A stretch of DNA of 64,000 nt, from positions 18,548 through 82,547 of the forward strand of contig CAZAVK010000006.1 of NCBI GenBank assembly GCA_964488645.1, in the 5' to 3' direction. Source of the DNA: an uncultured Rikenella sp. GTDB taxonomy: Bacteria > Bacteroidota > Bacteroidia > Bacteroidales > VadinHA17. The notes under the pieces were generated by a model that did no database searches, was not told the origin of the DNA, and was given only the letters and a program-made list of their open reading frames with translations. Every line of letters begins with the position of its first letter. Within the stretch, counting starts at the first letter, position 1. The translations under genes were made by a program, and so were the position numbers. Shown here one piece after another: positions 6,519-60,732 of this stretch.

Positions 6519-8396
6519 CTACTCCTTGTTCTCTATGAATGCATGGTGCAGCACAAATGGAGTGAAGTGTATTACCATGGAAGTACGTGCGGGAATAATC
6601 AGGTCTGATCCTGCAATAACCTCCCTGTTATCGAGGATATTTATTCCGATTTCACCCGGGGCAACTCTTTCGGCAAATCTTTCCCACTCCACCTGCTGGT
6701 CTGATTCTGAGGCATTGAGTATTACCATCACACATTCATGGTCATTATAACGGAAGTATGTATATACACCGTTCTGAGGGACATAGTGCATCAATCTTCC
6801 TGTATGCAGCAGAGGCGTATTTTTGCGAAAATGCAGCAGCCTCCGGGTATGTTCAAACATCTCGCTCTGTTCAGGCGACCGCTCCTCGGCTCTGAACAGG
6901 TTTATCTTATCTCCGGGCCACCCGCCCGGAAAGTCTGGTCTGACCCTGTGATTGGCGTCGGGCTCATCCGGATCATTTCTGAATAACAGTTCTGTGCCAT
7001 AAAATATCTGTGGAATACCACGGGTTGTTGTAATAAGGGTCATTGCCAGTTTTACGCCCTGCAGCTCTTCATCAAGGCTGCTGTAAATGCGCGGAATATC
7101 ATGATTGTCAGCAAAAACCACCTGTGAAAGTTCCGGGTTTTTATACAGAAAATCCTGGGCTATTATGTTATACACACCTCTCATTCTTCCACCCCAGTGA
7201 GTGCCTTTACCCGCAAGTTCAGCGGCAATTGCCTCCTGCAGGGGAAAGTCCATCACCATTGGCAGATGCGTTGTATAGCCGTCATAATTTCCGGCTGACC
7301 CGACCCAGTATGATAGTATTGCCGGTTCAGTCTCCCAGACCTCGCCCACAAGGGAGAAGAAAGGATACTCATTCATGATAGCCCTGGTCCACTCTCCGGC
7401 CTCTTTCCCCATATAGAAATATGTGTCAACCCGCAGGCCATCAAGGTCAGCATATTCAATCCACCAGACGGCCATCTGTGACAGGTATTTCAGCATAAAC
7501 GGGTTGGAGAGGTTGTGATCGGGCATGGTTGAGAAGAGCCAGTTGCTTCCCACAAACCGTGCATCACCTGCTGATGCGTGAGGGTCACTGAGGGAGGAGA
7601 GTGCAAAACGCTCCCAGAAGTTTCCCTCCATCATCATAGGATTGATCCAGTCACTGAAAGGAGGGTTGTCAACCCACCAGTGCCCGATGCCGCAGTGCTG
7701 AGGGGTGATATCCTGTATTACCTTTATACCATGTTCATGGGCCTTTGAGACATATTCCCTGTAGAGCTCATTGGTGCCAAGATGCGGATCAATCCTGTAA
7801 AAATCGGTTGCACCATAATGGTGATAATAGAGATCATCCTGCTGCATGGGGGTTGACCATATAGCTGTTATACCCAGGTCTGAAAGGTATCCCAGATGGT
7901 CAATAATACCCTGTATATCTCCCCCATGCCGGACTGTCATGTCACTACGGTCAACAATCTGGTCATTGCCTCTGACAATATCATTGGAGGGATCTCCATT
8001 GGAAAACCTGTCAGGCATAATCAGGTAGATTACGTCAGATGAGTTGAAGCCTTGCCTGTCAGCGGAGCCGGGACGTCTTGAGAATATTTCATAGGTGACC
8101 CTTACCTCCTTGCGGCTGCGGGTAAAGACCAAGGTATATTTTCCGGGTCTGGTAACCCCGGCATCAATGAAGAGGTAGTCAGGAGAGTCAGCATAATGGA
8201 TTCTTTCAATTGTCATACCCTCTTCAACCACCCTAACCGAACAGTCACGGATATTCTCTCCGCGGACAAGCAGCTGCAGGTCTGTCTTCATGCCGCTCCA
8301 CCAGCAGGGCGGATCTATCTGAATAATCTTCTGTGCCGTTGCTGTGGGTAAAACAGAGAGACCGAAAATCAACAATAACAACTTCAGTCTTATCAT
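6519..8396 (-). CDS. GH13 SusA/cyclomaltodextrinase-neopullulanase-like alpha-glucanase
   Basis: YLIMPDRFSNGDPSND; catalytic DGLRVD, GEVW and DNHD; N-terminal signal peptide. Confidence 0.92.
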   Translation of the reverse strand: MIRLKLLLLIFGLSVLPTATAQKIIQIDPPCWWSGMKTDLQLLVRGENIRDCSVRVVEEGMTIERIHYADSPDYLFIDAGVTRPGKYTLVFTRSRKEVRVTYEIFSRRPGSADRQGFNSSDVIYLIMPDRFSNGDPSNDIVRGNDQIVDRSDMTVRHGGDIQGIIDHLGYLSDLGITAIWSTPMQQDDLYYHHYGATDFYRIDPHLGTNELYREYVSKAHEHGIKVIQDITPQHCGIGHWWVDNPPFSDWINPMMMEGNFWERFALSSLSDPHASAGDARFVGSNWLFSTMPDHNLSNPFMLKYLSQMAVWWIEYADLDGLRVDTYFYMGKEAGEWTRAIMNEYPFFSLVGEVWETEPAILSYWVGSAGNYDGYTTHLPMVMDFPLQEAIAAELAGKGTHWGGRMRGVYNIIAQDFLYKNPELSQVVFADNHDIPRIYSSLDEELQGVKLAMTLITTTRGIPQIFYGTELLFRNDPDEPDANHRVRPDFPGGWPGDKINLFRAEERSPEQSEMFEHTRRLLHFRKNTPLLHTGRLMHYVPQNGVYTYFRYNDHECVMVILNASESDQQVEWERFAERVAPGEIGINILDNREVIAGSDLIIPARTSMVIHFTPFVLHHAFIENKE

Positions 8397-8424: not shown

Positions 8425-9822
8425 TTATTGAACGGAAGTCCCGGGTTTCCACAACTTCTCCATCTCCTCCAGCGGTTTGTTCCTGGTTTCGGGTACCATC
8501 TTCCAGACGAAGAGGGCTGAGAGCAGTGCCATGGCTCCGTAGAATCCGTAGGTCATGCCTCCGCTGAGCTCCATCATGGGCGGGTAGGTTGATGAGATGA
8601 GGAAGTTAGCCATCCACTGTGCCGCCACAGCCACGGCGGTGGCTTTGCTGCGTATCCTGTTCGGGAAGATCTCGGAGATGAGCACCCAGCAGACCGGACC
8701 CCACGACATGGTGAACGAGGCCATGAAGATGATAATGAAGATCAGGGTACCGATGCCTATCGTATTGGCAAAGGCCAGCCCCGCGATGGAGAACATGCCG
8801 ATGCTCATGCCGATGGAGCCGATTACCAGTAGCGGTTTTCTGCCCACACGGTCAACCGTCATGATAGCCACCAGGGTGAATACCACGTTCACCGATCCCA
8901 CAATGATTGTCTGCAGGAATGATGCATCCTTTGTGGCACCCATGCTCTCGAAGATGCGGGGAGCATAGTAGAGTGCCACGTTCACGCCAACGAACTGCTG
9001 GAACAGTGACAGCAGCACCCCGATGATGATAACCCTCTTGCCGAATGAGAATAGCCGTGCCGAGGAGGTCTGCAGTGAACCGGTGATCTCTCCCAGGATT
9101 ATCCTGGCATTTTCGGCGCCGTTTATCTTCGCAAGCACCCTGAATGCCCTGTCGTCCTGGTTTTTCATCATCAGGAATCGCGGCGTCTCGGGGACGAAGA
9201 GCAGCAGTACCCCGAACATCGCTGCCGGGATGGCCTCGGAGGCGAACATGTAACGCCACCCGGTCTCATTGATCCACTCCACGCTCTGCCCGCGCGCGAT
9301 GCTCCAGTTGACGAAGTAGACCGTAAGCATGCCGATGACTATGGCCAGTTGGTTGAGGGAGACCAGCCTGCCCCTGATCCTGGCCGGGGCAACCTCGCTG
9401 ATATACATCGGACAGACGGCAGATGCCAGACCCACCCCGATGCCTCCGAGGATACGGTAGGCGTTGAAGGTGATCAGCAACGCTGCAGAGGGCTCGCCCC
9501 TGACAAAGAAGAGGGTCTCCGGATAGGCCGACCCGAGTGCCGAGAGGAAAAAGAGAACCGATGTTATCAGGAGGGTCTTCTTGCGGCCCAGTGAAGAGGA
9601 TACCAGCCCGGAGAGGGAGCTGCCCATGATACAGCCGATCAGGGCGCTCGAGACGGTGATCCCGTGAATGAAGGCGTTCAGTCCCAGCGGATGGATCAGG
9701 TAAGTCTGGATAGCACGTTCGGCTCCTGAGATAACCGCAGTATCATATCCGAAAAGGAGTCCGCCAAGTGTCGCCACCAGCGTGATACTCAGGACATAAG
9801 CTAAATTAAACTCTCTCTGCAT
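8425..9822 (-). CDS. xylE: MFS sugar porter, XylE-like
   Basis: LGGLLFGYDTAVISG, QQFVGVNVALYYAP, PETPR, SWGPVCWVLISEIFP and VPET motifs. Confidence 0.9.
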   Translation of the reverse strand: MQREFNLAYVLSITLVATLGGLLFGYDTAVISGAERAIQTYLIHPLGLNAFIHGITVSSALIGCIMGSSLSGLVSSSLGRKKTLLITSVLFFLSALGSAYPETLFFVRGEPSAALLITFNAYRILGGIGVGLASAVCPMYISEVAPARIRGRLVSLNQLAIVIGMLTVYFVNWSIARGQSVEWINETGWRYMFASEAIPAAMFGVLLLFVPETPRFLMMKNQDDRAFRVLAKINGAENARIILGEITGSLQTSSARLFSFGKRVIIIGVLLSLFQQFVGVNVALYYAPRIFESMGATKDASFLQTIIVGSVNVVFTLVAIMTVDRVGRKPLLVIGSIGMSIGMFSIAGLAFANTIGIGTLIFIIIFMASFTMSWGPVCWVLISEIFPNRIRSKATAVAVAAQWMANFLISSTYPPMMELSGGMTYGFYGAMALLSALFVWKMVPETRNKPLEEMEKLWKPGTSVQ

Positions 9823-9895: not shown

Positions 9896-11848
9896 TCATT
9901 TTCCAAAAGTCACCTGCCTCAGGATGGTGCCTCCCATCGGTACCAGTACCACCTCTTCCGGGGCGCCGGTCTCCGGGTTGATCAGGCTCATCCTGAATCG
10001 CAGTCCCTCCTCCTTAACAGGCTGCCCGTTGCCGTCATACCTGTAGATCACCGGCTCGCCCTTGCTCCTGTACTCATAATCGCGGAATCCCACGGCATAG
10101 ACCACCGCAGGGGTCTCTTCAGCCTCAATGGGGCGGGCCAGCACCAGGGGGCCACAGGCAAAATAGTACTCATCATTGAATTGCTCTGCCCTGGGCACTG
10201 CCTCAAACTCAACCTCGAACTCTTCGGTGCCGCTCCATCTCCTCTCTATCACAATCATGTCGTCAACACGGGAATGATCGGTTGACACCTTTACTCTCCC
10301 TGCCCATCCGGGTATCCTGATCTTGAGCGCGAACTCTGCCGGCTGCTCAACCTCGGTCGTGAACCTTATCCTGGTATCATACGGGTAATCAGTCTCTTCA
10401 CTGATTCTGACCCTGGTCTCCTTCACCGTGGTTGTCACCTCGCAGGGTCCCAGCAGCGATGCTATCAGTCCATCATCTGCTCTCAGCCACATGTTATGCA
10501 CATAGTAGGGTGCTATGCGTCCCGCGTTGGGCACGCAGCAGACGGCAGCCTCCTTGTGTACAGGCGAGTATTTGTAGCGGGTCTGTTTCACCTTGGAGCC
10601 GGGCTCCTCATGCCCGTTTTTATTGCCGGCCATCTGGTATGAGTTGTCGGTCTTCAGGTAGGCGATGGCGCTCTTTTCTGGGTGACGGGCACCCTGTGCG
10701 GCGTTGAAGAAGAGGTGTTCCGCCTTGTCGGCATACTCCATCCTGCCGGTTTTTTGTGTCAGCATGGCGTAGCTGTGCAGCAGCTCCTGCAGTGAGCAGT
10801 ACTCATATCCGGTGGTGGTGGCATCGGCTGCCCTTCCTCCCACCCACTCATCGCCTACCGGTCCGCCTGACGGGGTGGTTGCCCGTTCAATGCGCTGCAG
10901 GTAGATGCCGAGCGCCCTCTCCAGGGCAGGGTTACCGGTGGCGAAGGCGGCGATGGTCAGCGCCCTCAGGTGCTCATAGGTGTGCACACCGTGCCCCTTC
11001 AGCCGGTACTCAGGGTCGATGATGCTGGGGTACTGGATATCGGTCTCGGAGACCTCATGCGAGGAGTACTCCTTGTATAGGAAGAGGGCATAGTCACGGT
11101 ACTCCTGCTTCCCGGTGAGCTGGAAGAGCCGGTCGAGCACATCGGTAAAGGTGAGGCCGTGAGCATTGCCGCCGTTGGAGTTCGGGTAGTAGTAGGGCGT
11201 AGATTCGTTGATCCGGAAGTTGTCCATCACATTCTGCACCCCGCGCTCCACCGCCTCCAGCACTCGGGTGTCGCCGGTGAACTCATAGTATGCAAGAAGC
11301 TCCCTGAAGAGGCTGGCCTTCGCCCATAGCTCGCCGTTCTCGCCGGTGAAGTTGTAGCGCAGGTCGGGAGCATAGATGCCAAGGTAACCATCCTCATCCT
11401 GGGTGGAGAGGATATAGCTGACATGTTCCCTGACCTTTTCAAGGTGCTGCCGGTCATTGACCAGGAATGCCGAACGCACATAGCCGTCGCGCCAGTTCGA
11501 CTGGGTCTCGCTGTTCCACCAGAGGTACTGCACATTCCAGTCGGCCACTTCGGCGACATTGCCTACATCCTTGGATTTCACATCGCGTGTCAGCCGGTCT
11601 CTGCCGTAAATGTCATCATCGATGATCAGGTCGGGCACCAGCCGGTCGAGGTTGCCGGTGAACCCTGCGAGGTTGTCTGAGATCTGCTCTGCCAGCCACC
11701 CCCTGGGGGCTATCTCATTCAGCGGAAGCAGCTCGGTCGCCTCCTGCAGCGGCCTGACCACCGCAAACGGAGAGGCCTCCTTTTTGTGGCAGGCTACCAG
11801 CAGTGTCGCCAGCAGGGCTATCATCAGCAGAATAAGGTATGGTTTCAT
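9896..11848 (-). CDS. GH127-like (beta-L-arabinofuranosidase family) glycoside hydrolase lipoprotein
   Basis: Lipobox LLVAC after MKPYL (start 11848); GYEYC and AVCC Zn/Cys motifs; YPYDTRI C-terminal beta domain. Confidence 0.82.
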   Translation of the reverse strand: MKPYLILLMIALLATLLVACHKKEASPFAVVRPLQEATELLPLNEIAPRGWLAEQISDNLAGFTGNLDRLVPDLIIDDDIYGRDRLTRDVKSKDVGNVAEVADWNVQYLWWNSETQSNWRDGYVRSAFLVNDRQHLEKVREHVSYILSTQDEDGYLGIYAPDLRYNFTGENGELWAKASLFRELLAYYEFTGDTRVLEAVERGVQNVMDNFRINESTPYYYPNSNGGNAHGLTFTDVLDRLFQLTGKQEYRDYALFLYKEYSSHEVSETDIQYPSIIDPEYRLKGHGVHTYEHLRALTIAAFATGNPALERALGIYLQRIERATTPSGGPVGDEWVGGRAADATTTGYEYCSLQELLHSYAMLTQKTGRMEYADKAEHLFFNAAQGARHPEKSAIAYLKTDNSYQMAGNKNGHEEPGSKVKQTRYKYSPVHKEAAVCCVPNAGRIAPYYVHNMWLRADDGLIASLLGPCEVTTTVKETRVRISEETDYPYDTRIRFTTEVEQPAEFALKIRIPGWAGRVKVSTDHSRVDDMIVIERRWSGTEEFEVEFEAVPRAEQFNDEYYFACGPLVLARPIEAEETPAVVYAVGFRDYEYRSKGEPVIYRYDGNGQPVKEEGLRFRMSLINPETGAPEEVVLVPMGGTILRQVTFGK

Positions 11849-11913
11849 TCTGAAGGTTTTTACTTTCACTCTTATCAACTCTTTGAGGGATTTTGTCCTG
11901 TCTGTTGTTGTGG

Positions 11914-12939
11914 TCAGGCCCTGGTATCCCGGGCATGCTCCTCCAGTGCTTCGCTGAAGGCTGTCATATTCTCCGGCGGCGTAAACCTGGGCACCTCACA
12001 TCCGGCACTGATACATGCCTTACCCTGCGATTCGGCGATGGACCTGCGCACTGCCGCCTTCACCTCCTCAACCGTACCGTTGAGCATCACCGCCACCGGA
12101 TCGGCATTGCCGTTCACCACCGACACACCGTCGAGAATCTCCACCGCACGCTTCATATCAACCATCCAGTCAATATCGACTATATCGCACCTGAGGCTCT
12201 TAATATCTTCGAGAATACGGTTTATGTCGCCGCAGATATGGAGCTTCACCACCGCCCCGGCCTGCTGCACCGCCTCGACTATCCTCTTTTCGTAGGGCAG
12301 CACCTTCTCAGCATAAAGGCTACGACTGACCAGCGATGCGGCGGCGTCACCGATGCCGATTATATCTGCGCCGGCCTCAATCTGTGCCTTTGCGCACAGG
12401 ATGGCCTGCTGAGTACACTTCTCCATCAGCTCGGCGAACAGCTCCTCACTCTCATCATCAATGATGTCGAGCAGGCTGTTGTTGATGCCCCGCAGGTCAC
12501 TCGCCTCAGCCAGCGGACCCTCAACCCATCCGATAATCGGGTAATGATTGCCCATCTCCTTCCTGAAGAGTTCAATGGCACGTATCCGGTCGAGCATACG
12601 CACCGATTCCCACGGGTCGAAGAGCTTCAACCTGGTGACATCTTCCAGCTCGGGCAGAAGAACCCTCTTAGGGTACGGAAGGTCATCCTCGCGGTAGATC
12701 AGCTCGGTACCGAAATCGGCGGTCTCCCTGACCGGGTCAGACATGGTGGAGAGGGCGTCAATACCGAAGTCAACCGTGGTTTTGATATTGCCCTCAACCA
12801 GCACCCGGTAGTCGGTACAGAACTCACCATAGGGCCGGTTGATGTGCCGGGCGGCAAAGAACATCACAATATTCAGGTTGGGAAGCCTGTCAACCGGTTT
12901 CCCCTCAAGCATCGCGTAGAGGCGTTCGTATGGAGTCAT
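11914..12939 (-). CDS. MtaA/CmuA-like (UROD-fold) corrinoid methyltransferase
   Basis: Zn-ligand motifs KLHICG and SAGCEVP; GPLAEA and GNADP; adjacent to a corrinoid protein cluster. Confidence 0.88.
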   Translation of the reverse strand: MTPYERLYAMLEGKPVDRLPNLNIVMFFAARHINRPYGEFCTDYRVLVEGNIKTTVDFGIDALSTMSDPVRETADFGTELIYREDDLPYPKRVLLPELEDVTRLKLFDPWESVRMLDRIRAIELFRKEMGNHYPIIGWVEGPLAEASDLRGINNSLLDIIDDESEELFAELMEKCTQQAILCAKAQIEAGADIIGIGDAAASLVSRSLYAEKVLPYEKRIVEAVQQAGAVVKLHICGDINRILEDIKSLRCDIVDIDWMVDMKRAVEILDGVSVVNGNADPVAVMLNGTVEEVKAAVRRSIAESQGKACISAGCEVPRFTPPENMTAFSEALEEHARDTRA

Positions 12940-13128
12940 ATCAATAGCTTGGTTTTTATTTTTATGTCTGTCTGGTTAATTATGATTCCTCATGTCTCAA
13001 ACTGCTTTGCCGGCTACAATCTGATTCTTTCGGCGCCGGCCGGTTATGCTTTCCTTCATCTGCTATTGCCTGGTTCTGTATCTCTAAGTCAGCCGTGTCA
13101 CTTTCTTGTTGCTTTACTCTTTTTCAAC

Positions 13129-13237
13129 TTACGGAGGTTGCTGCCTGTTGCCACCTTTGCTGTATCAGGAGGCTCTTGCTTTTCATCACCTTTGCTGTGT
13201 CAGCAGGCTCCTGCCTGTCGCCACCTTTCCTGTATCA
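13129..13237. repeat. 35-bp tandem repeat x3; the first copy shares 15 bp with the 3' end of the upstream gene
   Basis: Units g(g/c)agg...cacctttgctgtatca at 13133, 13168 and 13203; ttacggaggttgctg occurs at both 13129 and 13324 (inside the CDS). Confidence 0.85.
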
Positions 13238-13292
13238 CCTCTTTACCGGTTCCCGTATCAGTTTTGTCATCCCTTCTCTTTCTGCATATGTA

Positions 13293-14006
13293 TCATGGGT
13301 GACCGGTCAGCTTATGCCTCCTGTTACGGAGGTTGCTGGCGCAATCCTTCATGGTGCAGATGTCACATCCGTAAGGACGTCTTTTCACATCACTGCCCAC
13401 CGCAATTATCCCGCTGACCGACTTAACCGGTATCATCAGTGAAGAGGCGGTCAGGGTGATGCCGGTGATTCCCTCCGGCAGCAGTGCAAAGAGCTTCTTC
13501 TGCTCCTGCAGGCTCCAGTCGCAATAGCCCGGGCTGTAGTTATTGCTGATTTTCAATCCTGCCTTTGCAGCTTCGCGGCTGAGATGTTCATTCAGCAACT
13601 GGGCGGCGCCCTCTGCGATGACTGACCCCAGTGCATCGGCTATGAACTCGAGCAGTATGTTATCCTCTCTCTTCAGCTCCTGCAGCCGGTTATGGAACTC
13701 CATTCCGGCGGTGGCGGTGAAGAGGGCTATCTGTGTCGCCTCCTTCATGGCATGGGTAATAATGGCACCGGTATTGAATATGGTTCCGCCCGCCTCTATC
13801 CGCCTCTTGTCAACCGCCCTCCCGGGGAAAAGCGCGTAGCCGTAACGGGGTCTGCAGTGGCTGCGCAGCATCCCGGTCACCTCATCTATCATGGCAATGA
13901 TCTCCTCAGGCGGGGTGTGGTCGCCGTACCCCATCAGCCGGTAGAGCTCGCCGGTATCAATCGGGAGGTTATCGAGGGTGGTATCATAATAGCTGACCTG
14001 CTCCAT
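13293..14006 (-). CDS. Stand-alone B12-dependent methionine synthase activation (reactivation)-domain protein
   Basis: ALFTATAG, YSPGYCDW and SLMIPVKSVSGII motifs; C-terminal CxxCxxxxC (CDICTMKDC). Confidence 0.85.
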   Translation of the reverse strand: MEQVSYYDTTLDNLPIDTGELYRLMGYGDHTPPEEIIAMIDEVTGMLRSHCRPRYGYALFPGRAVDKRRIEAGGTIFNTGAIITHAMKEATQIALFTATAGMEFHNRLQELKREDNILLEFIADALGSVIAEGAAQLLNEHLSREAAKAGLKISNNYSPGYCDWSLQEQKKLFALLPEGITGITLTASSLMIPVKSVSGIIAVGSDVKRRPYGCDICTMKDCASNLRNRRHKLTGHP

Positions 14007-14019
14007 GCTTCGAGATCAT

Positions 14020-15030
14020 TCACCTGCCGTTCCAGGCAGAGAGCGCCTCATAAAAGGCTTCGATATTTTCATGCGGCACATGCGGCGGTACGTCGCAGCC
14101 GGTGGAGAGTACGAAATTAGGAAAGGGAGCTGTCTGTTCAAGCAGCTCGGTGGTCGCCTTATGAACCTCGGCGGACGTGCCCGACCTGAAAAGGGAGACC
14201 GGATCGAGGTTGCCCATCACCAGTGCTGTGGGAGGGATGGCCTGCAGGGCATCAGTCATATTCATCACATTGCCGAAATGATAGCCCCACGCGCCTGTCT
14301 CACTCATTGCCCGGGTGCAGTGGCCGGTGTTGCCGCAGTTGTGCAGTATGACCATGAATGAGTCATCCTGCAGCGCATCAACTATCTCTTTTATGTATGC
14401 CGATGAGTAGGTGCTGCAGAGGTTGTTTGAGAGGAGGCCGGCTGCCGGTTCGGCAATAATCACCCCCTGTGCTCCCTGGCGTCTGATCTCCCTGCCGTAG
14501 CCGGTCAGCCATGCGGTACACTTCTCCAGCAGCAGCTCAGCTGTATCGGGCTCATCGATGCATGCCATCATAAACTCAGACATGTCATAGAGCCTGCCGG
14601 CCAGGGTGAAGGGTCCGGTCATCCCTCCGAATACCGGCTTGCCGGGGATATTTTCCGCGGCAAGGCGGGCTGCCAGCAGATATTGGGGTACCCGGCCTGC
14701 CGACGTATCAGGTATCCCGAGCCCGGCAACATCCTCCTCGCTGCTCAGCAGCCGTCCGGTCACCGACGGTATCTCATCTTCCGGGAAGTGTACCCTGGCG
14801 CCGAATGCCTCCGCCTCAACCGTCAGGTCCATGATGGTGGTGCATGCTGCAGCCGGATAACGGTCATTGAGAGCCTTTATCGCCTCGTAGTGCACCCTGC
14901 CGTCACTCACCGCCTCCCTGACCGTTCTGCCCAGCAGCTCTATGCCCGGATGGGTCATGACAGGAACCGCAATGCGGTCACTCCGGTTAATGACACCGGC
15001 AATCCATTCTCTCATATTCATTTCAGTCAT
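14020..15030 (-). CDS. MtaA/CmuA-like (UROD-fold) corrinoid methyltransferase
   Basis: MDLTVEAEAFG, GPFTLA and GNLDP; Zn ligands ILHNCG and STGCDVP. Confidence 0.88.
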   Translation of the reverse strand: MTEMNMREWIAGVINRSDRIAVPVMTHPGIELLGRTVREAVSDGRVHYEAIKALNDRYPAAACTTIMDLTVEAEAFGARVHFPEDEIPSVTGRLLSSEEDVAGLGIPDTSAGRVPQYLLAARLAAENIPGKPVFGGMTGPFTLAGRLYDMSEFMMACIDEPDTAELLLEKCTAWLTGYGREIRRQGAQGVIIAEPAAGLLSNNLCSTYSSAYIKEIVDALQDDSFMVILHNCGNTGHCTRAMSETGAWGYHFGNVMNMTDALQAIPPTALVMGNLDPVSLFRSGTSAEVHKATTELLEQTAPFPNFVLSTGCDVPPHVPHENIEAFYEALSAWNGR

Positions 15031-15048: not shown

Positions 15049-15693
15049 TTATGAGATGCCCATCAGCTCCCTGGCCTTCCTCACTGCCGAGTTGGCGCTG
15101 TCACTGTACCCGTCTGCCCCTATCTCCGTTGCAAACCGTTCACTCACCGGGGCGCCTCCGATCATCACCTTCACCCGGTCACGCAGATGAGCCTCCTTCA
15201 GGGCATCGATCACACTCTTCATGTTGGGCATGGTTGTGGTTAGCAGGGCGCTCAGTCCGACGATATCGGCATTATGCTCCCTCACTGCCTCAAGGAATTT
15301 ATCGCTGCCGGCATCTATGCCCAGGTCAATCACCCTGAAGCCGCATCCCTCAAGCATTGATGCGACAAGGTTCTTGCCGATGTCATGCAGGTCGCCCTGC
15401 ACCGTGCCGATCACCACCGTACCCAGCGTGCTGATCTGTTCTCCCCCCTGCAGTAGCGGCTGCAGCAGGGCCAGGGAGGCCTTCATGGCACGGCTCGAGA
15501 GAAGCAGCTCGGGAACGAACGCCTCCTGCTTCTCAAAACGGCGCCCGATCTCCTCCATCGCCCTGATCATATGTTCTTCGATCAGCACCTGCGGAGAGAC
15601 ATTGTTGTCAAGTGCCTGACGGGTTACGGCAACCGCATCCTTGTGCCGGCCATTGAGAACAGCCTCATAAAGCAGATTCAAGTCAACATCCAT
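15049..15693 (-). CDS. Corrinoid (cobalamin-binding) methyl-carrier protein, MtbC/MttC-like
   Basis: Helical cap (FVPELL) followed by GDLHDIGKNLV (DxHxxG), SALLT and GGAP. Confidence 0.95.
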   Translation of the reverse strand: MDVDLNLLYEAVLNGRHKDAVAVTRQALDNNVSPQVLIEEHMIRAMEEIGRRFEKQEAFVPELLLSSRAMKASLALLQPLLQGGEQISTLGTVVIGTVQGDLHDIGKNLVASMLEGCGFRVIDLGIDAGSDKFLEAVREHNADIVGLSALLTTTMPNMKSVIDALKEAHLRDRVKVMIGGAPVSERFATEIGADGYSDSANSAVRKARELMGIS

Positions 15694-15837: not shown

Positions 15838-18156
15838 TCATTCCTCCAGGAAAAATGTAGCAGATTTCAGGTCACGGCTGTTTGGGCCTGCCATCACCCT
15901 GAACTCCCCGGGTTCACAGAGGTATTCGAGTTCATAGTTGTAAAACTTCAGCATCTCAGGTGTTATCCGGAAGGTGACGGTTGCCGTCTCTCCCGGGCTG
16001 AGCGTTATCTTTTCAAATCCCTTCAGCTCCTTCACCGGCCGGGTTACCGATGCCACCACATCACGGATATAGAGCTGGACCACCTCACTGCCCTCTCTCT
16101 GTCCGGTGTTGGTTACATCTATGGCGGCCTCAATCTCTCCTCCCGCGGTCATAAGAGTATCACTGAGCACCAGGTCGCCATAGCTGAATGAGGTGTAGCT
16201 GAGCCCGTAGCCGAACGGATAAAGCGGTTCATTGACCACATCGAGGTATCCGCTGCGGAATTTCTGGAACCACTGATCCATTGGTTTGCTCACGCTCTTC
16301 AGGCTGTAGTATATGGGTATCTGCCCGACGTTCCGCGGCCATGTGGCGGTCAGCCTGCCGCCGGGGCTCACATCGCCGAATAGGACGTCAGGGATGGCAT
16401 AGGCCGCCTCCGTTCCGGGGAACCAGACATTGAGTATTGCCGGAACGTTTTCATCTTCCCAGGTTATTGTCAGTGGCCTGCCGGTAAAGAGCACCAGCAC
16501 CACCGGCTTGCCCGTGGCTACCAGCGCCTTCAGCAGCTCTCTCTGCGGTGCCGGGAGGCCTATCTCCGAGCGGCTGCTTGACTCACCGCTCATCTCCGAT
16601 GACTCGCCGAGGGTTGCGACCACCACATCGGCGCTCCGTGCCACCCGAAGGGCCTCCTCAAGCAGCTGTGCATTGGTGCGGGTATCCTTCTCAAAATCCT
16701 TGGTCAGCGAGAGCCAGAACTCATGCTCCATATTCTCATAGGGCTGACAGCCGCGGGCATAGACTACCCTGGCCTTCCCGCCGAGGTGCTCCCTCATCCC
16801 GTCGAGGAGCTTCGGTGCCTTGTTGATATCTGCAGGCCATGCCCACGAGCCTATCACGTTGGCGCTGTTGTTGCCGTGAGGTCCTATCAACGCAATTGTT
16901 CCCCTCTTCGCCAGTGGGAGAAGGCTGTTCTCATTCTTCAGCAGCACAAATGTCTCCGGGGCGATGGCGCGCGCCACACTGCGGTGCTCCGGGGTGTAGA
17001 TGTCGCGGGCCGGGCGGGTGGTGTCACAGTATTTGTACGGGTCTGTGAAAAGCCCAAGCCTGTATTTTGCCTCGAGTATGCGCCGGCATGCCTTTTCTAT
17101 CTGGTCAAGTGAGATATCTTCGGCCTCCATTGCGGCGGCCAGGTGACGGTGATAGGCATAGCTCTCCATATCCAGGTCGGTGCCTGCCCTGAGCGCCATC
17201 ACCGCACCGTCATAGGTGGTACCCATACCGAACCGTACTATATCATTGATCGAGGCATAGTCTGTCACAACGAATCCGCCGAAACCCCACTGGTCACGCA
17301 GCAGATCCTGAAGCAGCCACCTGTTGGCTGTGGCAGGCAGACCGTCAACCTCATTGAATGAGCTCATTACACTTCCGACGCCTGCCTCCACGGCAGCCCT
17401 GTATGGCAACAGGTACTCATTCAGCATCCGCTGCCGGCTCATATCGACAACGCTGTAGTCGCGGCCGGCCTCACTGGCACCGTAGAGTGCAAAATGCTTC
17501 ACGCATGCCATGATGTTACTGTTGCCGGCATAGGCGGGGTCGCCCTGGTATCCCTTCACCAGTGCCCTCGCCACGGCAGCCCCGAGGAAGGGGTCTTCGC
17601 CGGCCCCCTCGACAATACGCCCCCACCGCGGGTCACGGGCTATGTCAACCATAGGACTGTAAACCCAGTTAAGGCCGTCGGCGCTCGCCTCCACGGCAGC
17701 GATACGGGCAGCCTGCTCAATGATCTCCATATTCCACGAGGCAGCCATCCCGAGCGGAACGGGGAAGATGGTCTCATATCCATGCAGGAAATCCATTCCG
17801 AACAGCAGGGGTATCTTCATGCGGCTCTGCTCAACGGCAACCTGCTGCAGGCGGTGTATCTTCACGGCACCTTTGGCATTTATCAGTGCACCCACATGAC
17901 CTGCCCTGATCTCCTGAACCATCCTGCTCTGGTCGCTGTGCAGATCCTCACCCGAGACAGCATCGGTGCCCGAGATCAGATGCAGCTGTCCGATCTTCTC
18001 CTCCAGGGTCATCCTCTTCAGGAGGGAGGAGATGAATGCATCCATCTCCGCATCTGTGGCATCACGCCTTTCATGTGTGCATGAAACCATGATGGAGAGC
18101 AGAGTGACCATCACATACAGGGCGGGTTTGCAGCCGGAATTTCTTGTCATCAGCAT
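15838..18156 (-). CDS. bglX: GH3 beta-glucosidase BglX-like lipoprotein
   Basis: DPRWGRIVEGAGEDP, CVKHFA and nucleophile in VTDY; FN3-like C-terminus. Start is probably 18156 or 18150, ahead of lipobox IMVSC. Confidence 0.93.
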   Translation of the reverse strand: MLMTRNSGCKPALYVMVTLLSIMVSCTHERRDATDAEMDAFISSLLKRMTLEEKIGQLHLISGTDAVSGEDLHSDQSRMVQEIRAGHVGALINAKGAVKIHRLQQVAVEQSRMKIPLLFGMDFLHGYETIFPVPLGMAASWNMEIIEQAARIAAVEASADGLNWVYSPMVDIARDPRWGRIVEGAGEDPFLGAAVARALVKGYQGDPAYAGNSNIMACVKHFALYGASEAGRDYSVVDMSRQRMLNEYLLPYRAAVEAGVGSVMSSFNEVDGLPATANRWLLQDLLRDQWGFGGFVVTDYASINDIVRFGMGTTYDGAVMALRAGTDLDMESYAYHRHLAAAMEAEDISLDQIEKACRRILEAKYRLGLFTDPYKYCDTTRPARDIYTPEHRSVARAIAPETFVLLKNENSLLPLAKRGTIALIGPHGNNSANVIGSWAWPADINKAPKLLDGMREHLGGKARVVYARGCQPYENMEHEFWLSLTKDFEKDTRTNAQLLEEALRVARSADVVVATLGESSEMSGESSSRSEIGLPAPQRELLKALVATGKPVVLVLFTGRPLTITWEDENVPAILNVWFPGTEAAYAIPDVLFGDVSPGGRLTATWPRNVGQIPIYYSLKSVSKPMDQWFQKFRSGYLDVVNEPLYPFGYGLSYTSFSYGDLVLSDTLMTAGGEIEAAIDVTNTGQREGSEVVQLYIRDVVASVTRPVKELKGFEKITLSPGETATVTFRITPEMLKFYNYELEYLCEPGEFRVMAGPNSRDLKSATFFLEE

Positions 18157-18227
18157 TGATTTATGGTTAGTCTGTAGAGTAAGAGCGGAAAGCTGCCCGT
18201 TGCGGGAGGCTCTTATACGCAAATCTA

Positions 18228-18680
18228 CTATGTCAGCCGCCATTCTGCAAGCAGCAGGCCTCTCTTTATGTGGTTATTTGTATTCAGCATAATCCTGTCG
18301 GCCGTCTCGAGGATGTTTTTCAGAACAGGCTTGGGGTTGCCCATCATGATACCGTTGTTCTGCGATGAGCTGGCATACTCGATATACCATTTATAGTTCC
18401 GTATCTGCCACAGGTCAAACATCTCTTCCGGTTCAAAGAGGTCGAAGAATGTTACATCAGTCTCAATATTCTGCATCCCGATGGCCACCGCAAAGAGTTC
18501 GCGCATGATGGTGACCGGGTTCACCCGCCTGAGGATGTAGATATCATCGGAGAAGAGGCTCCTGACCAGCCGGTCTGGCCTGACAGGAGATTGATGGCCA
18601 GGAAACCCAGCAAAAGCTGTAACCAAATAACTCTCATATGATTCTCTTTTGAATTGATCCTTCGGAAAGAGCGACACCAC
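18228..18680 (-). pseudogene. Internal fragment of a histidine acid phosphatase (Minpp/phytase-like)
   Basis: PDRLVRSLF...MRELF...MQN...DLF..EE.FDLWQ..NY.WY...LKNILETAD resembles the middle of Bacteroidota histidine-type phosphatases. The RHGxRxP and HD motifs are absent and there is no signal peptide. Confidence 0.6.
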
Positions 18681-54483: not shown

Positions 54484-55146
54484 ATGGCGCTGAGAGGATG
54501 CATCTTTGACCTTGACGGTGTCATTGTCGACACCGCCAGCTATCACTTCATGGCATGGAGGAGGCTGGCAAAAGAGCTGGGGTTCGAGTTTACCCTCGAA
54601 GACAATGAGGCACTCAAGGGGGTGAGCCGAATGGCATCGCTGGAGATACTGCTTGAAAAGGGAGGGATAGCGGTAAGCGATGAGGAGAAGGAGATACTGG
54701 CAGCACGCAAGAACGGGTGGTATGTAGAGTTCATCAGCGGAATGAAGCCCGATGAGATCCTGCCGGGCAGCATCAGGCTGCTGAAGGCGCTGAGAAGGGC
54801 TGGTATACTGACAGCCATCGGCTCGGCCAGCAAAAATGCCCGTACAATCATTGACACTACAGGCCTCGCCGGCATGTTTGACGTCATCGTTGACGGAGCG
54901 ATGGTTACCAGGGCCAAGCCCGACCCGGAAGTATTCCTCAAAGGGGCCGAAGGGATGAAACTGCTGCCATCGGAATGCGTGGTGTTCGAGGATGCCATTG
55001 CAGGCATAGAGGCAGCCATGGCTGCCGGAATGAAATGTGTCGGGGTGGGCGATCCCTCCATACTGGGGAAGGCTGACATGGTTATACCCGACCTGAGGAA
55101 AATCAAAGTGAGTGATCTGAAAAAACTGATTGAGAGATATGAGTGA
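54484..55146 (+). CDS. pgmB: Beta-phosphoglucomutase (HAD)
   Basis: FDLDGVIVDT, KGVSR, KPDPE and FEDA. Confidence 0.95.
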   Translation: MALRGCIFDLDGVIVDTASYHFMAWRRLAKELGFEFTLEDNEALKGVSRMASLEILLEKGGIAVSDEEKEILAARKNGWYVEFISGMKPDEILPGSIRLLKALRRAGILTAIGSASKNARTIIDTTGLAGMFDVIVDGAMVTRAKPDPEVFLKGAEGMKLLPSECVVFEDAIAGIEAAMAAGMKCVGVGDPSILGKADMVIPDLRKIKVSDLKKLIERYE

Positions 55147-57451
55147 TACCCGTTTTCAGCCTGATGAGTGGAAGATCATCGAGACCAGGTTTGATCCGGT
55201 GTGCGGGCGTGACTCAGAGAGTATATTCTCCCTGGGTAACGGCATGATGGGGCAAAGGGCCAATTTCGAGGAGACCTATTCAGGTGACACCCTGCGGGGC
55301 AACTATGTTGCAGGTATTTACTATCCTGACCGCACCGTGGTGGGGTGGTGGAAGATAGGGTACCCGGAATATTTCGCCAAGGTGCTGAATGCGCCTTCAT
55401 GGATAGATATATCCGTAAACATTGACGGGGAGGAGCTTGATCTGGCCCAATGCAGTCTCACCGGGTTCAGGCGTGAGCTCGACATGAGGTGCGGCCTGCT
55501 GACACGCACCTTTACCGCCGTGATGCCCTCAGGGCCCGCCGTCACGGTCACTGCCAGGCGCTTTCTATCGATGGCTGAGCCGGAGCTGGCAGCCATCAGC
55601 TATTCGGTACGCATCTCCGGCGGCAGCGGCAGGGTGACGCTGCGCTCACGTATCACCGCCGATGTCAGGAACCAGGATGCAAACTACGGCGAAAAGTTCT
55701 GGGAGAATGAGTCGGCAGAACATGATGGCCGCCGTGCGGTGGTGACGGCGCAGACCAGGAAAACCGGCTTTGTGGTCGCTACCGCCATGGAGAACCGTTT
55801 CACTCTGAACGGAGCCACGGTCAGTGATACCGCGACCACCGCCGGAGGGCTGGCGGCAGAGAGCAGCCTCACCACAGCATGGAGTGACGGAGACACCTTC
55901 ACCATCGAAAAGTATGTTGCAGTGCTCTCATCATTCAACCACCCCGTGGAGGGATTGGCCGGCAAGGCGATGGCAGCGGCCGGGCGGGCGGCCGGGAAGG
56001 GTTTTGAGGCTATGCTGGCCGGGCACCGCAGGGCATGGGAGGAGAAGTGGAGCCACGGTGACATAGTGATCAGTGGAGATGTGTCGGCACAGCAGGGGAT
56101 ACGGTTCAACATATTCCACCTCAACCAGACCTATACGGGTGAAGACCCGCGGCTCAACATAGGGCCCAAGGGATTCACCGGTGAGAAGTATGGCGGCAGC
56201 ACCTACTGGGACACCGAAGCCTTCGTGCTGCCATTCTTCCTCAGCACGGCCGATACCATGGTGGCACGCAACCTGCTGCTCTACCGGTACAAGCACCTCG
56301 ACAAGGCCATTGAGAATGCCGGCAGGCTTGGCTTCACCGGCGGGGCAGCCCTCTACCCCATGGTTACCATGAACGGCGAGGAGTGTCACAATGAGTGGGA
56401 GATAACCTTCGAGGAGATACACCGTAACGGCGCCATCGCCTATGCCATCTACAACTATGTAAGGCATACCGGCAACGACGGCTACCTGGCTGACTACGGG
56501 CTGGAGGTGCTGATAGCGCTCTCGCGCTTCTGGACCCAGCGCTGCAACTGGTCGGAGGAGAAGCAGAAATATGTCATCCTGGGGGTAACCGGGCCCAATG
56601 AGTATGAGAACAACGTCAACAACAACTGGTACACCAACAAGATGGCACAGTGGACACTGCGGTATACCCTCAGCACCATTGAATGGCTGCATGGTGTCAG
56701 CCCGGTGAAGTACAATGCGGTGGTTACCCGTACCCGGCTGGCCATACCGGAAGAGACCACCCTATGGGAAGAGATAGCCCGCAGCATATTCCTGCCTGAG
56801 TATGGCAATCCGCCCATCTTTCTGCAGCAGGAAGGGTTCATGGACAAGGTGCAGCAGGTGGCCGGCGACCTCGACCCTGCCGAGAGGCCCCTCAACCAGC
56901 ACTGGTCATGGGACCGTATACTGCGGTCGGTCTTCATCAAGCAGGCTGATGTGCTGCAGGGGATATACTTTTTCGACGATGAGTTTGATGAAGAGACCAT
57001 CAGGCGCAACTTCGACTTCTATGAGCCGCGCTGTGTGCATGAGTCATCCCTCTCCCCCAGCATCCATGCTGTGATCGCCGCACAGCTGCATGACATCGAA
57101 AGAGCCTACACCCTCTACCTGCGTACCGCCAGGCTTGACCTTGACGACTATAACCGTGAGGTGAGGGAGGGGCTGCATATCACCAGCATGGCAGGCACCT
57201 GGCTCGCCATTGTTGAGGGGTTCGGAGGCATGAGGATAAGGGGCGACAGGGTGCTCTTCAACCCGGTGATACCCGCTGCATGGGACTCCTACTCCTTTAT
57301 CATCAGATTTCGTAACAACCCTCTCCGGGTCGGGGTCAGCAGCAGCGGGGTGACCGTGACCAACCTCGCGCAGGCAGAGATACCCGTTGCCGTCTACGGT
57401 GAGCAGGTCACTCTCAGGCCGGGAGGGGAAAAAAGATTCCTGAGAGTATGA
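55139..57451 (+). CDS. GH65 maltose phosphorylase
   Basis: SLGNG, GPKGFTGEKYGG, GPNEYE, KQAD and HESSLS. Confidence 0.93.
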   Translation: MSDTRFQPDEWKIIETRFDPVCGRDSESIFSLGNGMMGQRANFEETYSGDTLRGNYVAGIYYPDRTVVGWWKIGYPEYFAKVLNAPSWIDISVNIDGEELDLAQCSLTGFRRELDMRCGLLTRTFTAVMPSGPAVTVTARRFLSMAEPELAAISYSVRISGGSGRVTLRSRITADVRNQDANYGEKFWENESAEHDGRRAVVTAQTRKTGFVVATAMENRFTLNGATVSDTATTAGGLAAESSLTTAWSDGDTFTIEKYVAVLSSFNHPVEGLAGKAMAAAGRAAGKGFEAMLAGHRRAWEEKWSHGDIVISGDVSAQQGIRFNIFHLNQTYTGEDPRLNIGPKGFTGEKYGGSTYWDTEAFVLPFFLSTADTMVARNLLLYRYKHLDKAIENAGRLGFTGGAALYPMVTMNGEECHNEWEITFEEIHRNGAIAYAIYNYVRHTGNDGYLADYGLEVLIALSRFWTQRCNWSEEKQKYVILGVTGPNEYENNVNNNWYTNKMAQWTLRYTLSTIEWLHGVSPVKYNAVVTRTRLAIPEETTLWEEIARSIFLPEYGNPPIFLQQEGFMDKVQQVAGDLDPAERPLNQHWSWDRILRSVFIKQADVLQGIYFFDDEFDEETIRRNFDFYEPRCVHESSLSPSIHAVIAAQLHDIERAYTLYLRTARLDLDDYNREVREGLHITSMAGTWLAIVEGFGGMRIRGDRVLFNPVIPAAWDSYSFIIRFRNNPLRVGVSSSGVTVTNLAQAEIPVAVYGEQVTLRPGGEKRFLRV

Positions 57452-59286: not shown

Positions 59287-59296
59287 TATGACCGTT

Positions 59297-60667
59297 ATGA
59301 AAGAGCACATTCTGAAGATCCTGCTTATTGTTGCCGGAGCAGTGCTGCTGGCGGCAGCATGCCGGCCCGCACTGAAATCAGCCATCGAGCCGCTGAAGTC
59401 ATCGGTAGTCCATGCTGAATGGACCCGCAACATGGTGCTTTATGAAATCAATGTCAGGCAGTTCTCAGACGAGGGTACCTTCGCGGGAGTGGAGCAGGCT
59501 CTGCCAAGACTGAAAGAGCTGGGCGTCAACGTATTGTGGTTTATGCCAATCCATCCCATCGGAGAGGTCAACCGCAAAGGCGGACTGGGAAGCTACTACT
59601 CGATAAGTGACTACAAGGGGGTCAATCCCGAATTCGGTACCTTTGAAGAGTTCAGGGCACTGGTCACCAGGGCACATGAGATGGGATTCCATGTTATTAT
59701 GGACTGGGTGGGCAACCACTCGGCGTGGGATAACCACCTGGCAACCGAATTCCCTGAGTGGTATGAAAAAGGAGCCGACGGCAATTTCGTATCTCCCTTC
59801 GACTGGAGTGATGTGATACAGTTTGATTATACTGCAGAACCGCTGTGGGATTATATGATCGGCGCCATGCGCTTCTGGGTCGAAGAGGCAGGTATTGACG
59901 GCTACCGATGCGACTTCCCGGGCCTGGTGCCGGAGGAGTTCTGGTACAGGGCCACCACCGAGCTCAACACCATCAGGCCGGTGCTGATGCTCGCCGAGGA
60001 CGAAGAGCACTCATACCTCCTGGAGAGGGCATTTGACATGAACTATGCCTGGGCACATCACCACCTGATGAATGCCGTTGCACAGGAGAAGCGCAGGCCG
60101 GCTGCGCTTGACAGCCTGATGGACTACGAACTTGAAAGGTATGCCCCCGATTCATACCGGCTGCGCTTCATGACAAACCATGACGAGAACTCATGGAACG
60201 GTACCATCACCGAGCAGATGGGCGACGCACAGCGGGCATTTGCATGCTACCTCTTCACCATTCCGGGGGTACCCCTGCTCTACAACGGGCAGGAGGCTGA
60301 CCTCGACAGGAGGCTACTCTTCTTCGAGCGTGACCCGATCAACTGGAAAGAGAGTGATCTCACCCCCTTCTACACCACCCTGGTACACCTGCGCACAACG
60401 CATCCCGCACTGCGCCACGGCACCGAAGGGGGGAGCTATGAGAGAGTGAAGAGCGACCGGAAAAGCGTGATGGCCTATCGCAGGGTGAAGGGTGAGGATG
60501 TGGTGCTCACGATACTGAACATGAGCAGCAGCCCGGTGACGGTAAGCCTGAAAGAGAGCTCCGCAGACGGAAGCTACCGGGACCTCTTTACCGGCGGGGC
60601 GGTGGAGATAGCCCGCGGCAGCAAGCTTGAGATGGAGCCATGGGGATACATGGTACTGACAAAATAG
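59297..60667 (+). CDS. GH13 alpha-amylase lipoprotein
   Basis: Lipobox LAAAC; YEINVRQF, DWVGNH, DGYRCD, LAE and NHDE. Alternative start at 59288. Confidence 0.92.
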   Translation: MKEHILKILLIVAGAVLLAAACRPALKSAIEPLKSSVVHAEWTRNMVLYEINVRQFSDEGTFAGVEQALPRLKELGVNVLWFMPIHPIGEVNRKGGLGSYYSISDYKGVNPEFGTFEEFRALVTRAHEMGFHVIMDWVGNHSAWDNHLATEFPEWYEKGADGNFVSPFDWSDVIQFDYTAEPLWDYMIGAMRFWVEEAGIDGYRCDFPGLVPEEFWYRATTELNTIRPVLMLAEDEEHSYLLERAFDMNYAWAHHHLMNAVAQEKRRPAALDSLMDYELERYAPDSYRLRFMTNHDENSWNGTITEQMGDAQRAFACYLFTIPGVPLLYNGQEADLDRRLLFFERDPINWKESDLTPFYTTLVHLRTTHPALRHGTEGGSYERVKSDRKSVMAYRRVKGEDVVLTILNMSSSPVTVSLKESSADGSYRDLFTGGAVEIARGSKLEMEPWGYMVLTK

Positions 60668-60694
60668 CTTTCTGAGATATGTCTTGAAAGGTTG

Positions 60695-60732
60695 CAGGGC
60701 CGGCGGAGGAAATCTCTGCCGGCCCTGTTTTT
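60695..60732 (+). terminator. Intrinsic terminator between convergent genes
   Basis: cagggccggcggag-gaaat-ctctgccggccctg followed by ttttt. Confidence 0.85.

Follow-up and report, generated by a model that had tools for sequence, protein, structure and literature searches.

A proposed B12-dependent demethylation module with two MtaA-like methyltransferases in a glycan-use locus of a Bacteroidales genome

Introduction

The closest described counterparts of the locus analysed here are systems in which methyl groups are carried on a corrinoid protein. In methanogens, MtaB, MtaC and MtaA make up a methanol:thiol pathway in which MtaB acts on methanol by means of a Cys-containing zinc site; coenzyme M (CoM) is, to our knowledge, not to be expected in Bacteroidales. 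In bacterial O-demethylases and chloromethane dehalogenase (OdmABCD, VdmB, MtvABC, Dhaf_4610-12, CdmBCA; PMC13222342), a donor-side methyltransferase (MT I) of the UroD superfamily adjoins a corrinoid protein with a DxHxxG motif, and a pterin-binding acceptor-side methyltransferase (MT II) methylates tetrahydrofolate (THF). Type 1 mlp clusters occur mostly in Firmicutes (73% of genera), and the text that describes them does not mention Bacteroid- (PMC10418091); in this work, Kountz and Balskus associate a His-Cys-Cys site with S- or Se-methyl transfer and raise for the mlp clusters the same acceptor question that arises below. Finally, MetH and split systems such as MtgBCD of Ruegeria (PMC12478193) distribute comparable modules over one or several proteins. 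In the literature that we searched, no paper describes systems of this kind for Bacteroidales. Here, we analyse a stretch of 64,000 nucleotides (the window; contig CAZAVK010000006.1, positions 18,548 to 82,547, assembly GCA_964488645.1) from an uncultured Rikenella sp. (Bacteroidales, VadinHA17) that encodes a corrinoid protein (CP), two MtaA-like proteins with the uroporphyrinogen decarboxylase (UROD) fold, which we refer to as UROD-A and UROD-B, and ACT, a stand-alone protein similar to the activation domain of MetH.

An earlier reading of this sequence, the original prediction, was that one UROD paralogue could act as MT I and the other as MT II with a thiol or sulfide as acceptor. We suggest, with a probability of roughly 0.5, that both UROD proteins function as donor-side MT I enzymes on one shared CP, that ACT reactivates CP, and that THF is the acceptor by way of a MeTr-like protein encoded on another contig (C18) of the same genome. 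In this proposal, the cluster forms part of a glycan-use locus and serves there as a module for B12-dependent demethylation.

Results

The four genes at the centre of this proposal are the following:

15049-15693, minus strand: corrinoid (B12) carrier CP of the MtaC/MetH-Cob type, with B12-binding_2 and B12-binding domains
14020-15030, minus strand: UROD-A, MtaA-like zinc methyltransferase of 336 aa with LHNCGN...GCDVP; proposed donor-side MT I
13293-14006, minus strand: ACT, stand-alone MetH activation-domain-like protein (Pfam Met_synt_B12, 41.7 bits; PDB 1j6r, E=3e-7); proposed reductive reactivator of CP
11914-12939, minus strand: UROD-B, MtaA-like zinc methyltransferase of 341 aa with LHICGD...D-I-D...GCEVP; favoured as donor-side MT I, with MtaA-like MT II as the alternative

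The original prediction described two UROD-fold reading frames with a His-x-Cys...Cys pattern; both exist on the minus strand, with ligands that fall on the zinc positions of MtaA and are invariant within each clade. UROD-A reads ILHNCGN...STGCDVP and UROD-B reads KLHICGD...SAGCEVP, and in HMMER alignments both motifs align with LHICGN and PGCGIA of M. mazei MtaA (4ay7). The predicted ligands His, Cys and Cys do not vary among 27 relatives of UROD-B, which come from many phyla, nor among any of the roughly 22 orthologues of UROD-A, and a separate alignment of six sequences likewise shows them as invariant; as judged from these alignments, conservation, not chance, is behind the His-Cys-Cys pattern in both proteins. 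The column of the Glu in the MtaA 'SVE' motif, which we take to be the fourth zinc ligand, holds an invariant Asp in UROD-B and a Gly in UROD-A. In CP, the DxHxxG motif reads GDLHDIGKN.

UROD-A and UROD-B match Pfam URO-D with 195 and 213 bits, respectively, and for both proteins the MtaA/CmuA, MtbA and MtaA models outscore hemE. Neither protein reached a curated MtaA/MtbA family cut-off: for UROD-A and UROD-B, respectively, the scores were 109 and 116 bits for MtaA_Meth (cut-off 400), 109 and 134 bits for MtbA (cut-off 600), 140 and 163 bits for TIGR01463 (cut-off 235), and 146 and 155 bits for PRK06252 (cut-off 244). The AF2 models (pLDDT 88.1 for UROD-A and 95.8 for UROD-B) both have M. mazei MtaA 4ay7 as their best match in the PDB, with TM scores of 0.87 and 0.89, and identity to MtaA is just 22-24% for the two proteins. 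The URO-D matches are also what uroporphyrinogen decarboxylases (HemE) would give, but we regard this identity as practically negligible in probability: the two proteins score 79 and 93 bits against the hemE model TIGR01464 with its cut-off of 303, their best structural match is MtaA, they possess zinc ligands that are absent from HemE, their genes adjoin that of a corrinoid protein, and on PF01208 a true HemE from a relative reaches 327 bits vs the 195-213 bits found here.

UROD-A and UROD-B are 29% identical and form separate deep, well-supported clades in a phylogenetic tree, suggesting that they are old paralogues and not the products of a recent duplication. UROD-A was placed nearest, with weak support, to a group of URODs that have His-x-Asp at the ligand positions and are encoded beside a PF02574 homocysteine S-methyltransferase (HcyMT) or a MeTr-like protein. 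When a partial MtaA sequence was included in the tree, MtaA grouped with neither paralogue, on a long branch and with weak support.

The original prediction also held that THF methyltransferase and MttB are absent. This is correct for the window, in which a Pfam scan of the 30 open reading frames of at least 330 aa returned no MttB, MtmB or Pterin_bind match; likewise, a genome-wide search with PF00809 gave no match on the window contig. It does not hold for the genome, which is 95% complete and which we surveyed for corrinoid methyl-transfer genes: one MeTr-like enzyme is encoded at G000:C18:56166-56981 (G, C and L denote our genome, contig and locus handles). The genome has three Pterin_bind proteins, i.e. 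a 340-aa frame on C11 with the best PF00809 score (240 bits), presumed to be FolP, MetH on C2, and this stand-alone protein of 272 aa. The C18 protein scores 205 bits with PRK07535, 111 bits with AcsE/MeTr (2e7f/1f6y) over its full length, 114 bits with the Fol domain of MetH and 89 bits with the O-demethylase MT II of D. hafniense (4o0q). An FGGY kinase gene lies downstream of the C18 gene.

The remaining inventory is small. PF02574, the Hcy domain, occurs once, within MetH, and there is no separate PF02574 protein. PF02310 (B12-binding) has three matches in the genome, to the cluster CP, to MetH and to a 722-aa frame known only as a PF02310 match; the cluster CP is the one free-standing corrinoid protein, and ACT is also single. 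No homologue of RACo was found in the genome by tblastn, the MetH-activation-like ACT being in its place; no MtaB was found in the genome; and tblastn with one CobW protein from a related locus gave no match in it. Given that the genome has one free carrier and one free folate-side methyltransferase, the only possible free corrinoid partner of the C18 MeTr-like protein is the cluster CP. There are three UROD-family genes: UROD-A, UROD-B and, on C16, UROD3. UROD3, a third MtaA-like UROD (G000:C16:19826-20860; locus L007 9827-10861), is 40% identical to UROD-B and reads KIHICGD...GCEVT; it closes an operon of a NagA-like amidohydrolase, a ROK kinase, an MFS porter and a SIS-domain protein, with no corrinoid protein nearby.

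The closest public relative, a metagenome-assembled genome (MAG) of an uncultured Rikenella sp., has the same cassette gene content in a slightly changed order, with a UROD-B that is 89% identical. Its single free corrinoid protein is located in the cassette, and its MeTr-like gene is found in the locus L157 (G301:C8:128000-147000) in the order LacI - GH67 alpha-glucuronidase (491 bits) - UROD(His-x-Asp) - XylB - XylA - MeTr-like. With the sole free corrinoid protein in the cassette, the MeTr-like enzyme of this MAG must serve the cassette carrier, and the same logic applies to the window genome. L157 is in itself a candidate locus for a B12-dependent demethylase acting on the 4-O-methyl-glucuronate of xylan; the window genome lacks this part.

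Orthologues of the C18 MeTr-like protein (44-51% identical) were detected in 11 of 300 sampled Bacteroidales species, and in nine of 12 loci a corrinoid protein 44-50% identical to the cluster CP is encoded within ~5 kb of the orthologue. Often found nearby are genes for ACT, a MetV-MetF fusion (PF12225 + PF02219), formate-THF ligase (Fhs), FocA and RACo. A set of loci (L060-L066, L059 and L069) combines the MeTr-like protein with a corrinoid protein, the MetV-MetF fusion, formate-THF ligase, FocA and RACo, and looks like a route by which non-acetogens would oxidise the methyl group of methyl-corrinoid via methyl-THF to formate.

In about 20 related loci, an acceptor-side enzyme adjoins the corrinoid protein, and this enzyme is either HcyMT or a MeTr-like protein. 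Free-standing HcyMT lies beside the corrinoid protein in L032, L044, L061, L064, L153 of Flexilinea, L167, L168, L171, L178, L179 and L180, and L030, L035 and L162 encode fused proteins in which a 'c9' domain of 350-400 aa is followed by Hcy, a lost or degenerate Fol, and Cob. Based on these architectures, the family of systems looks like a disassembled MetH with homocysteine or THF as acceptor. The 'c9' domain has no Pfam match (L026 6194-7258; L030 2213-5221; L035; L162 610-4359), is present in fused proteins of 1002-1249 aa and also occurs free beside GH31 and an SSS symporter. It is a candidate for a new methyl-donor module on a MetH-derived scaffold. We considered whether 'c9' is a UROD and rejected this, given that BLAST returned just weak, collinear, non-significant matches. 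Similarly, MetH acting in trans in G137 was dropped as an interpretation because the 1249-aa protein in question is an [N-domain]-Hcy-(degenerate Fol)-Cob fusion and not an ordinary MetH.

Orthologues of UROD-A (45-60% identical) occur in ~19 of 301 Bacteroidales species genomes distributed over many families, with CP, UROD-A and ACT as the recurrent core; ACT adjoins the corrinoid protein in most related loci. UROD-A, CP and HcyMT are found together in L032, L030, L035 and L153 (UROD-A 41% identical), and L153 has nothing but these three genes side by side. These sets place UROD-A in the donor position. Neighbours of UROD-A loci include GH31, GH141, a GH78-like gene, FucI, RhaM and FucP, and in L033 the gene order is CP-UROD-A-MtaB-CobW-RACo-ACT.

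The UROD-B clade extends over many phyla at 43-56% identity. Its members are found in Bacteroidota and, going by the labels of MAGs and isolates, in Bacillota (several orders), Armatimonadota, Chloroflexi, spirochaetes, Actinomycetota, Thermotogota, Fusobacteriaceae and others. A corrinoid protein lies no more than 9 kb from UROD-B in only 10 of 80 loci, and a free corrinoid protein is encoded somewhere in the genome in all 15 UROD-B genomes checked. A GH127-like gene is near UROD-B in 11 of the 80 loci, and this pairing recurs in Bacteroidales and Clostridia. UROD-B-type genes are usually found singly in sugar loci, with GH127-like, GH3 or transporter genes as neighbours. In Bacteroidales, a lone UROD-B also occurs in a Sus-type locus (SusR-SusC-SusD-SusE-CobW-UROD-B-GH3-MFS) and in the setting GH2-UROD-B-isomerase-like. 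The placement of UROD-B and UROD3 in sugar loci fits a substrate-specific donor enzyme and not a general unloading enzyme. A dedicated acceptor enzyme is encoded alongside UROD-B/3-like genes in eight genomes.

True MtaB (PF12176, 540-568 bits where scanned), which belongs to a donor-side family, is present beside corrinoid proteins in Bacteroidales glycan-use loci (L072-L074, L033, L165 and L179). It was found with UROD-A (L033), with UROD-B (L072-74) and with HcyMT (L179); because it pairs with either UROD type, the presence of MtaB marks neither UROD as MT II. The UROD-B examples are three Bacteroidales/Prevotellaceae MAGs with the order GH13-CP-MtaB-ACT-UROD-B-GH3-GH127, in which MtaB (568 bits) fills the slot of UROD-A. 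We considered this arrangement as proof that UROD-B is MT II, an argument that is neutralised by L033 with MtaB beside UROD-A. In L179, with the order UROD(His-x-Asp)-HcyMT-CP-MtaB-ACT, the single carrier already has its own acceptor enzyme, and MtaB would simply be one more donor enzyme grouped about it. UROD7-like and 450-aa URODs likewise co-occur with HcyMT (L167 and L168).

CobW-type GTPases (metal chaperones) adjoin UROD or MtaB genes in L031, L033, L116, L158, L164-L168 and L181, in L031 with an ACT fusion; such neighbours fit predicted zinc-dependent enzymes. Some corrinoid-adjacent URODs of 457-539 aa have a C-terminal thioredoxin-like domain (L044 2960-4579; L116 10691-12064).

In the window, the four core genes are part of a co-oriented minus-strand run in the order GH3 - CP - UROD-A - ACT - UROD-B - GH127-like - XylE-like porter - GH13, which has the following additional features:

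15838-18243, minus strand: GH3 glycosidase, BglX-like, at the head of the run; Pfam Glyco_hydro_3, Glyco_hydro_3_C and Fn3-like domains
13141-13237, no strand: 35-bp tandem repeat in 2.8 copies (TRF score 124), within the 353-bp gap between ACT and UROD-B (12940-13292)
9896-11878, minus strand: GH127-like (DUF1680) protein, 36 bp downstream of UROD-B; Pfam GH127 catalytic and middle domains at ~48 bits each
8425-9822, minus strand: XylE-like MFS sugar:H+ symporter (NCBIfam XylE, 696 bits vs cut-off 608)
6519-8396, minus strand: GH13 SusA-like neopullulanase/cyclomaltodextrinase, at the end of the run; Pfam Alpha-amylase with Cyc-maltodext N and C domains

The GH3 protein scores 860 bits with NCBIfam BglX (cut-off 666), and its gene is retained in all related cassettes. 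GH13 is also retained in related cassettes, which are themselves found within SusC/D/E-type loci. The GH127-like protein has weak similarity to an aceric-acid hydrolase. In L070 of the nearest relative, the frames of ACT and UROD-B abut or overlap, which suggests that the gap between them arose by a local insertion. Promoter and terminator scans across the cluster returned sites no more frequently than in shuffled sequence. At its C-terminus, ACT carries an extra conserved Cys-rich tail, CxxCxxxxC (RPYGC-x2-C-x4-C), with a conserved 'SPGYCDW' upstream, both of which are common to the homologues in L072-L074; the tail may bind a metal or an Fe-S cluster, a site that is missing from the activation domain of MetH. 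Elsewhere in the window (55130-63573), a separate maltose/starch block contains GH65, a second SusA-like GH13, which is 41% identical to the cluster GH13, and two further GH13 genes.

Discussion

Combining the ligand analysis with the genome inventory and the contexts of related loci, we suggest a model in which (i) UROD-A and UROD-B are both MT I enzymes whose zinc sites would activate different methylated substrates delivered by the locus, (ii) each would methylate the one CP that they share, in its Co(I) state, (iii) ACT would rescue CP from the oxidised Co(II) state, probably with S-adenosylmethionine and reduced flavodoxin or ferredoxin as in MetH, and (iv) the methyl group would exit via the C18 protein, outside the window, acting as a MeTr/AcsE-like methyl-corrinoid:THF methyltransferase, to give methyl-THF that may feed MetH or be oxidised via an MTHFR-like enzyme and Fhs. 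All catalytic steps in this model, the direction in which the methyl group moves and the nature of the donors are inferred from domains, ligands, gene inventories and contexts. As donors, methylated sugars could be expected from the glycoside hydrolases, porters and isomerases in these contexts; alternatively, the donors could be methoxylated aglycones freed by GH3 or GH78-type enzymes.

Several observations weigh against this model. Four of the five other genomes with a UROD-B cassette have no stand-alone MeTr-like protein and no separate HcyMT, and in the three MAGs with MtaB, UROD-B is the sole UROD gene and, MetH aside, there is no MeTr-like protein or HcyMT. In the 300-genome Bacteroidales sample, orthologues of MeTr and UROD-A share no genome except the one analysed here. 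The C18 gene is unlinked to the cluster; the contig ends close to it, and when the stretch upstream was checked for partner genes, it contained a 23S-5S rRNA operon, which the C18 gene directly follows. The MeTr-like proteins of the window genome and of the nearest relative are only 50% identical. Both URODs have His-Cys-Cys, and URODs beside MeTr or HcyMT have His-x-Asp. Moreover, loci with two URODs or MtaB tend to lack a dedicated acceptor gene (16/1 vs 7/6, Fisher p=0.025, kinship ignored), a locus count that is rough and predates the loci that hold HcyMT with two URODs or with MtaB. We rejected the MeTr-like protein as a universal partner of the cassette, given its absence from four of the five cassette genomes and its lack of co-occurrence with UROD-A except here; on inventory grounds, the partnership is kept for the window genome and its nearest relative. 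We also rejected the idea that a second UROD replaces HcyMT: the genome lists at first looked complementary, but a PF01208 census revealed that HcyMT-positive genomes usually have extra URODs, and the loci combining HcyMT with two URODs or with MtaB weaken the idea too.

In the form in which we assessed the original prediction, UROD-A would be the donor-side MT I and UROD-B an MtaA-like MT II delivering the methyl group to a thiol other than CoM, such as homocysteine, sulfide (giving methanethiol) or another. Two of its elements stand, in that the cluster is a corrinoid module without the usual acceptor-side enzyme inside it and homocysteine, a thiol, seems to be the commonest acceptor in sister systems. 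A UROD paralogue as the enzyme that serves this thiol is not borne out, since sister loci with a thiol acceptor use the PF02574 HcyMT instead. The division of the two paralogues into MT I and MT II, which we place second among the readings, is doubtful. It draws on the three MAGs with MtaB, CP and UROD-B but no dedicated acceptor, which mirror methanogen MtaB/MtaC/MtaA, on the His, Cys and Cys of UROD-B together with its Asp in the MtaA Glu column, on MtaA/MtbA scores that are closer for UROD-B than for UROD-A, and on the conservation of UROD-B (45-56% identity over about ten phyla) together with the free corrinoid protein in all 15 genomes checked. In addition, a corrinoid protein beside UROD-B is always accompanied by a second UROD or MtaB, and sulfide and selenide methylation by MtaA-like proteins as well as sulfide-dependent O-demethylation are on record (PMC10418091, PMC7374477). 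However, with MtaB also beside UROD-A in L033, the MtaB argument hits the supposed MT I equally, and the split is further disfavoured because UROD-A sits in triads with CP and HcyMT and because UROD-B and UROD3 lie in loci specific for particular sugars, often far from corrinoid proteins; HcyMT or MeTr is also present in many genomes with UROD-B-like genes, and the MeTr-like enzyme of the window genome would be left without another corrinoid partner. It is improbable that UROD-B represents a widespread bacterial clade of MtaA-like MT II enzymes unloading methyl-corrinoid onto homocysteine, sulfide (with methanethiol as product) or another non-CoM thiol. If it did, non-acetogenic sugar fermenters would have a folate-independent exit for methyl groups from glycans or methanol, and in the three MAGs the MtaB-CP-UROD-B cassettes would amount to a full bacterial version of the methanol:thiol pathway of methanogens.

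Alternatively, both URODs may be donor-side enzymes with homocysteine as the acceptor via the Hcy domain of MetH in trans, in which case the C18 MeTr-like protein would have a minor or different role. CP and ACT are MetH-like modules, the acceptor in sister systems is most often PF02574, some fusions of the form [N-terminal domain]-Hcy-(degenerate Fol)-Cob show descent from MetH, about 13 related genomes have MetH as their sole possible Hcy or Fol module, and in Ruegeria one corrinoid module is known to serve catabolic demethylation as well as the synthesis of methionine (PMC12478193). We nevertheless consider this route quite unlikely, as the dedicated MeTr-like gene of the window genome makes the detour unnecessary and nothing here shows an intact MetH accepting a foreign corrinoid protein. 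A further reading, in which both URODs are thiol- or selenol-type enzymes, would have them demethylate S- or Se-methyl compounds in the manner of Mlp/MtsA or, in reverse, S-methylate two thiols in a flow from methyl-THF via MeTr and CP. The invariant His-Cys-Cys site of both proteins, the ligand rule with the measured selenide/sulfide activity of ClMlp2 (PMC10418091), and the combination of several MtaA-like proteins with a corrinoid protein but no folate methyltransferase, as in mlp clusters, all speak for it. It is hardly probable in view of the sugar catabolism context throughout (GH3, GH13, GH127-like, GH31, FucI, XylA/B and porters) with no sulfur or selenium genes, and of ACT occupying the place that Ram/RACE has in mlp clusters; the UROD-A-CP-HcyMT sets, moreover, would contain two acceptor enzymes and zero donor enzyme. 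The ligand rule is also not strict, as the Cys-rich zinc site of MtaB acts on an O-methyl donor. We thus retain both URODs as MT I enzymes with the C18 protein on the acceptor side as the reading that we favour.

If this reading is true, gut and sediment Bacteroidales carry out B12-dependent demethylation within polysaccharide-use loci, using a disassembled MetH, i.e. carrier, reactivator and folate or homocysteine acceptor modules, that takes many interchangeable donor enzymes (UROD-A, UROD-B, UROD7, His-x-Asp URODs, MtaB and the 'c9' domain). In that way, methyl groups from dietary glycans or glycosides would be coupled directly to methionine and one-carbon metabolism as well as to how much B12 the gut community requires, and the module would be an anaerobic counterpart of the P450 route known for 6-O-methyl-galactose. 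The puzzle of the missing acceptor shrinks with the C18 MeTr-like protein as a concrete candidate, and the question shifts to those relatives in which every kind of dedicated acceptor enzyme is missing.

The modular design suggested here has parallels in, and differences from, each of the described systems. With methanogen MtaB/MtaC/MtaA (4ay7), the cluster shares the UROD fold, the His-x-Cys...Cys positions and an MtaC-like CP with DxHxxG, and the cassettes of some relatives carry MtaB; unlike that system, the window genome has no MtaB, the reactivator is like the MetH activation domain and not RamA, the setting is a glycan-use locus, and UROD-A and UROD-B are remote from MtaA in identity and below the family cut-offs. 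Type 1 mlp clusters (PMC10418091) similarly combine at least two MtaA-like His-Cys-Cys proteins with a corrinoid protein, and they too lack an H4folate methyltransferase gene within the cluster, but their activase is of the Ram/RACE type and their neighbours are sulfur or selenium genes, whereas here ACT and glycoside hydrolases and porters are found. The bacterial O-demethylases and chloromethane dehalogenase (PMC13222342) resemble the cluster in that an MT I of the UroD superfamily adjoins a corrinoid protein with DxHxxG, and the counterpart of their pterin-binding MT II could be the C18 protein with its matches to 4o0q and AcsE. In contrast to OdmABCD-type systems, the MT II candidate is on another contig, an activase of the RACo type is missing, the host is a non-acetogen, glycan-derived donors are suggested, and the MT I candidates are ~340 aa proteins with His-Cys-Cys, whereas carboxylate or absent ligands are reported for the aromatic O-demethylases. 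With respect to MetH and split systems such as MtgBCD of Ruegeria (PMC12478193), the donor modules are of the UROD, MtaB or 'c9' type instead of methyl-THF, the window genome has no separate Hcy module, and ACT has its extra Cys-rich tail; module by module, however, CP corresponds to Cob, ACT to the activation domain, the C18 protein to Fol and the HcyMT of sister loci to Hcy.

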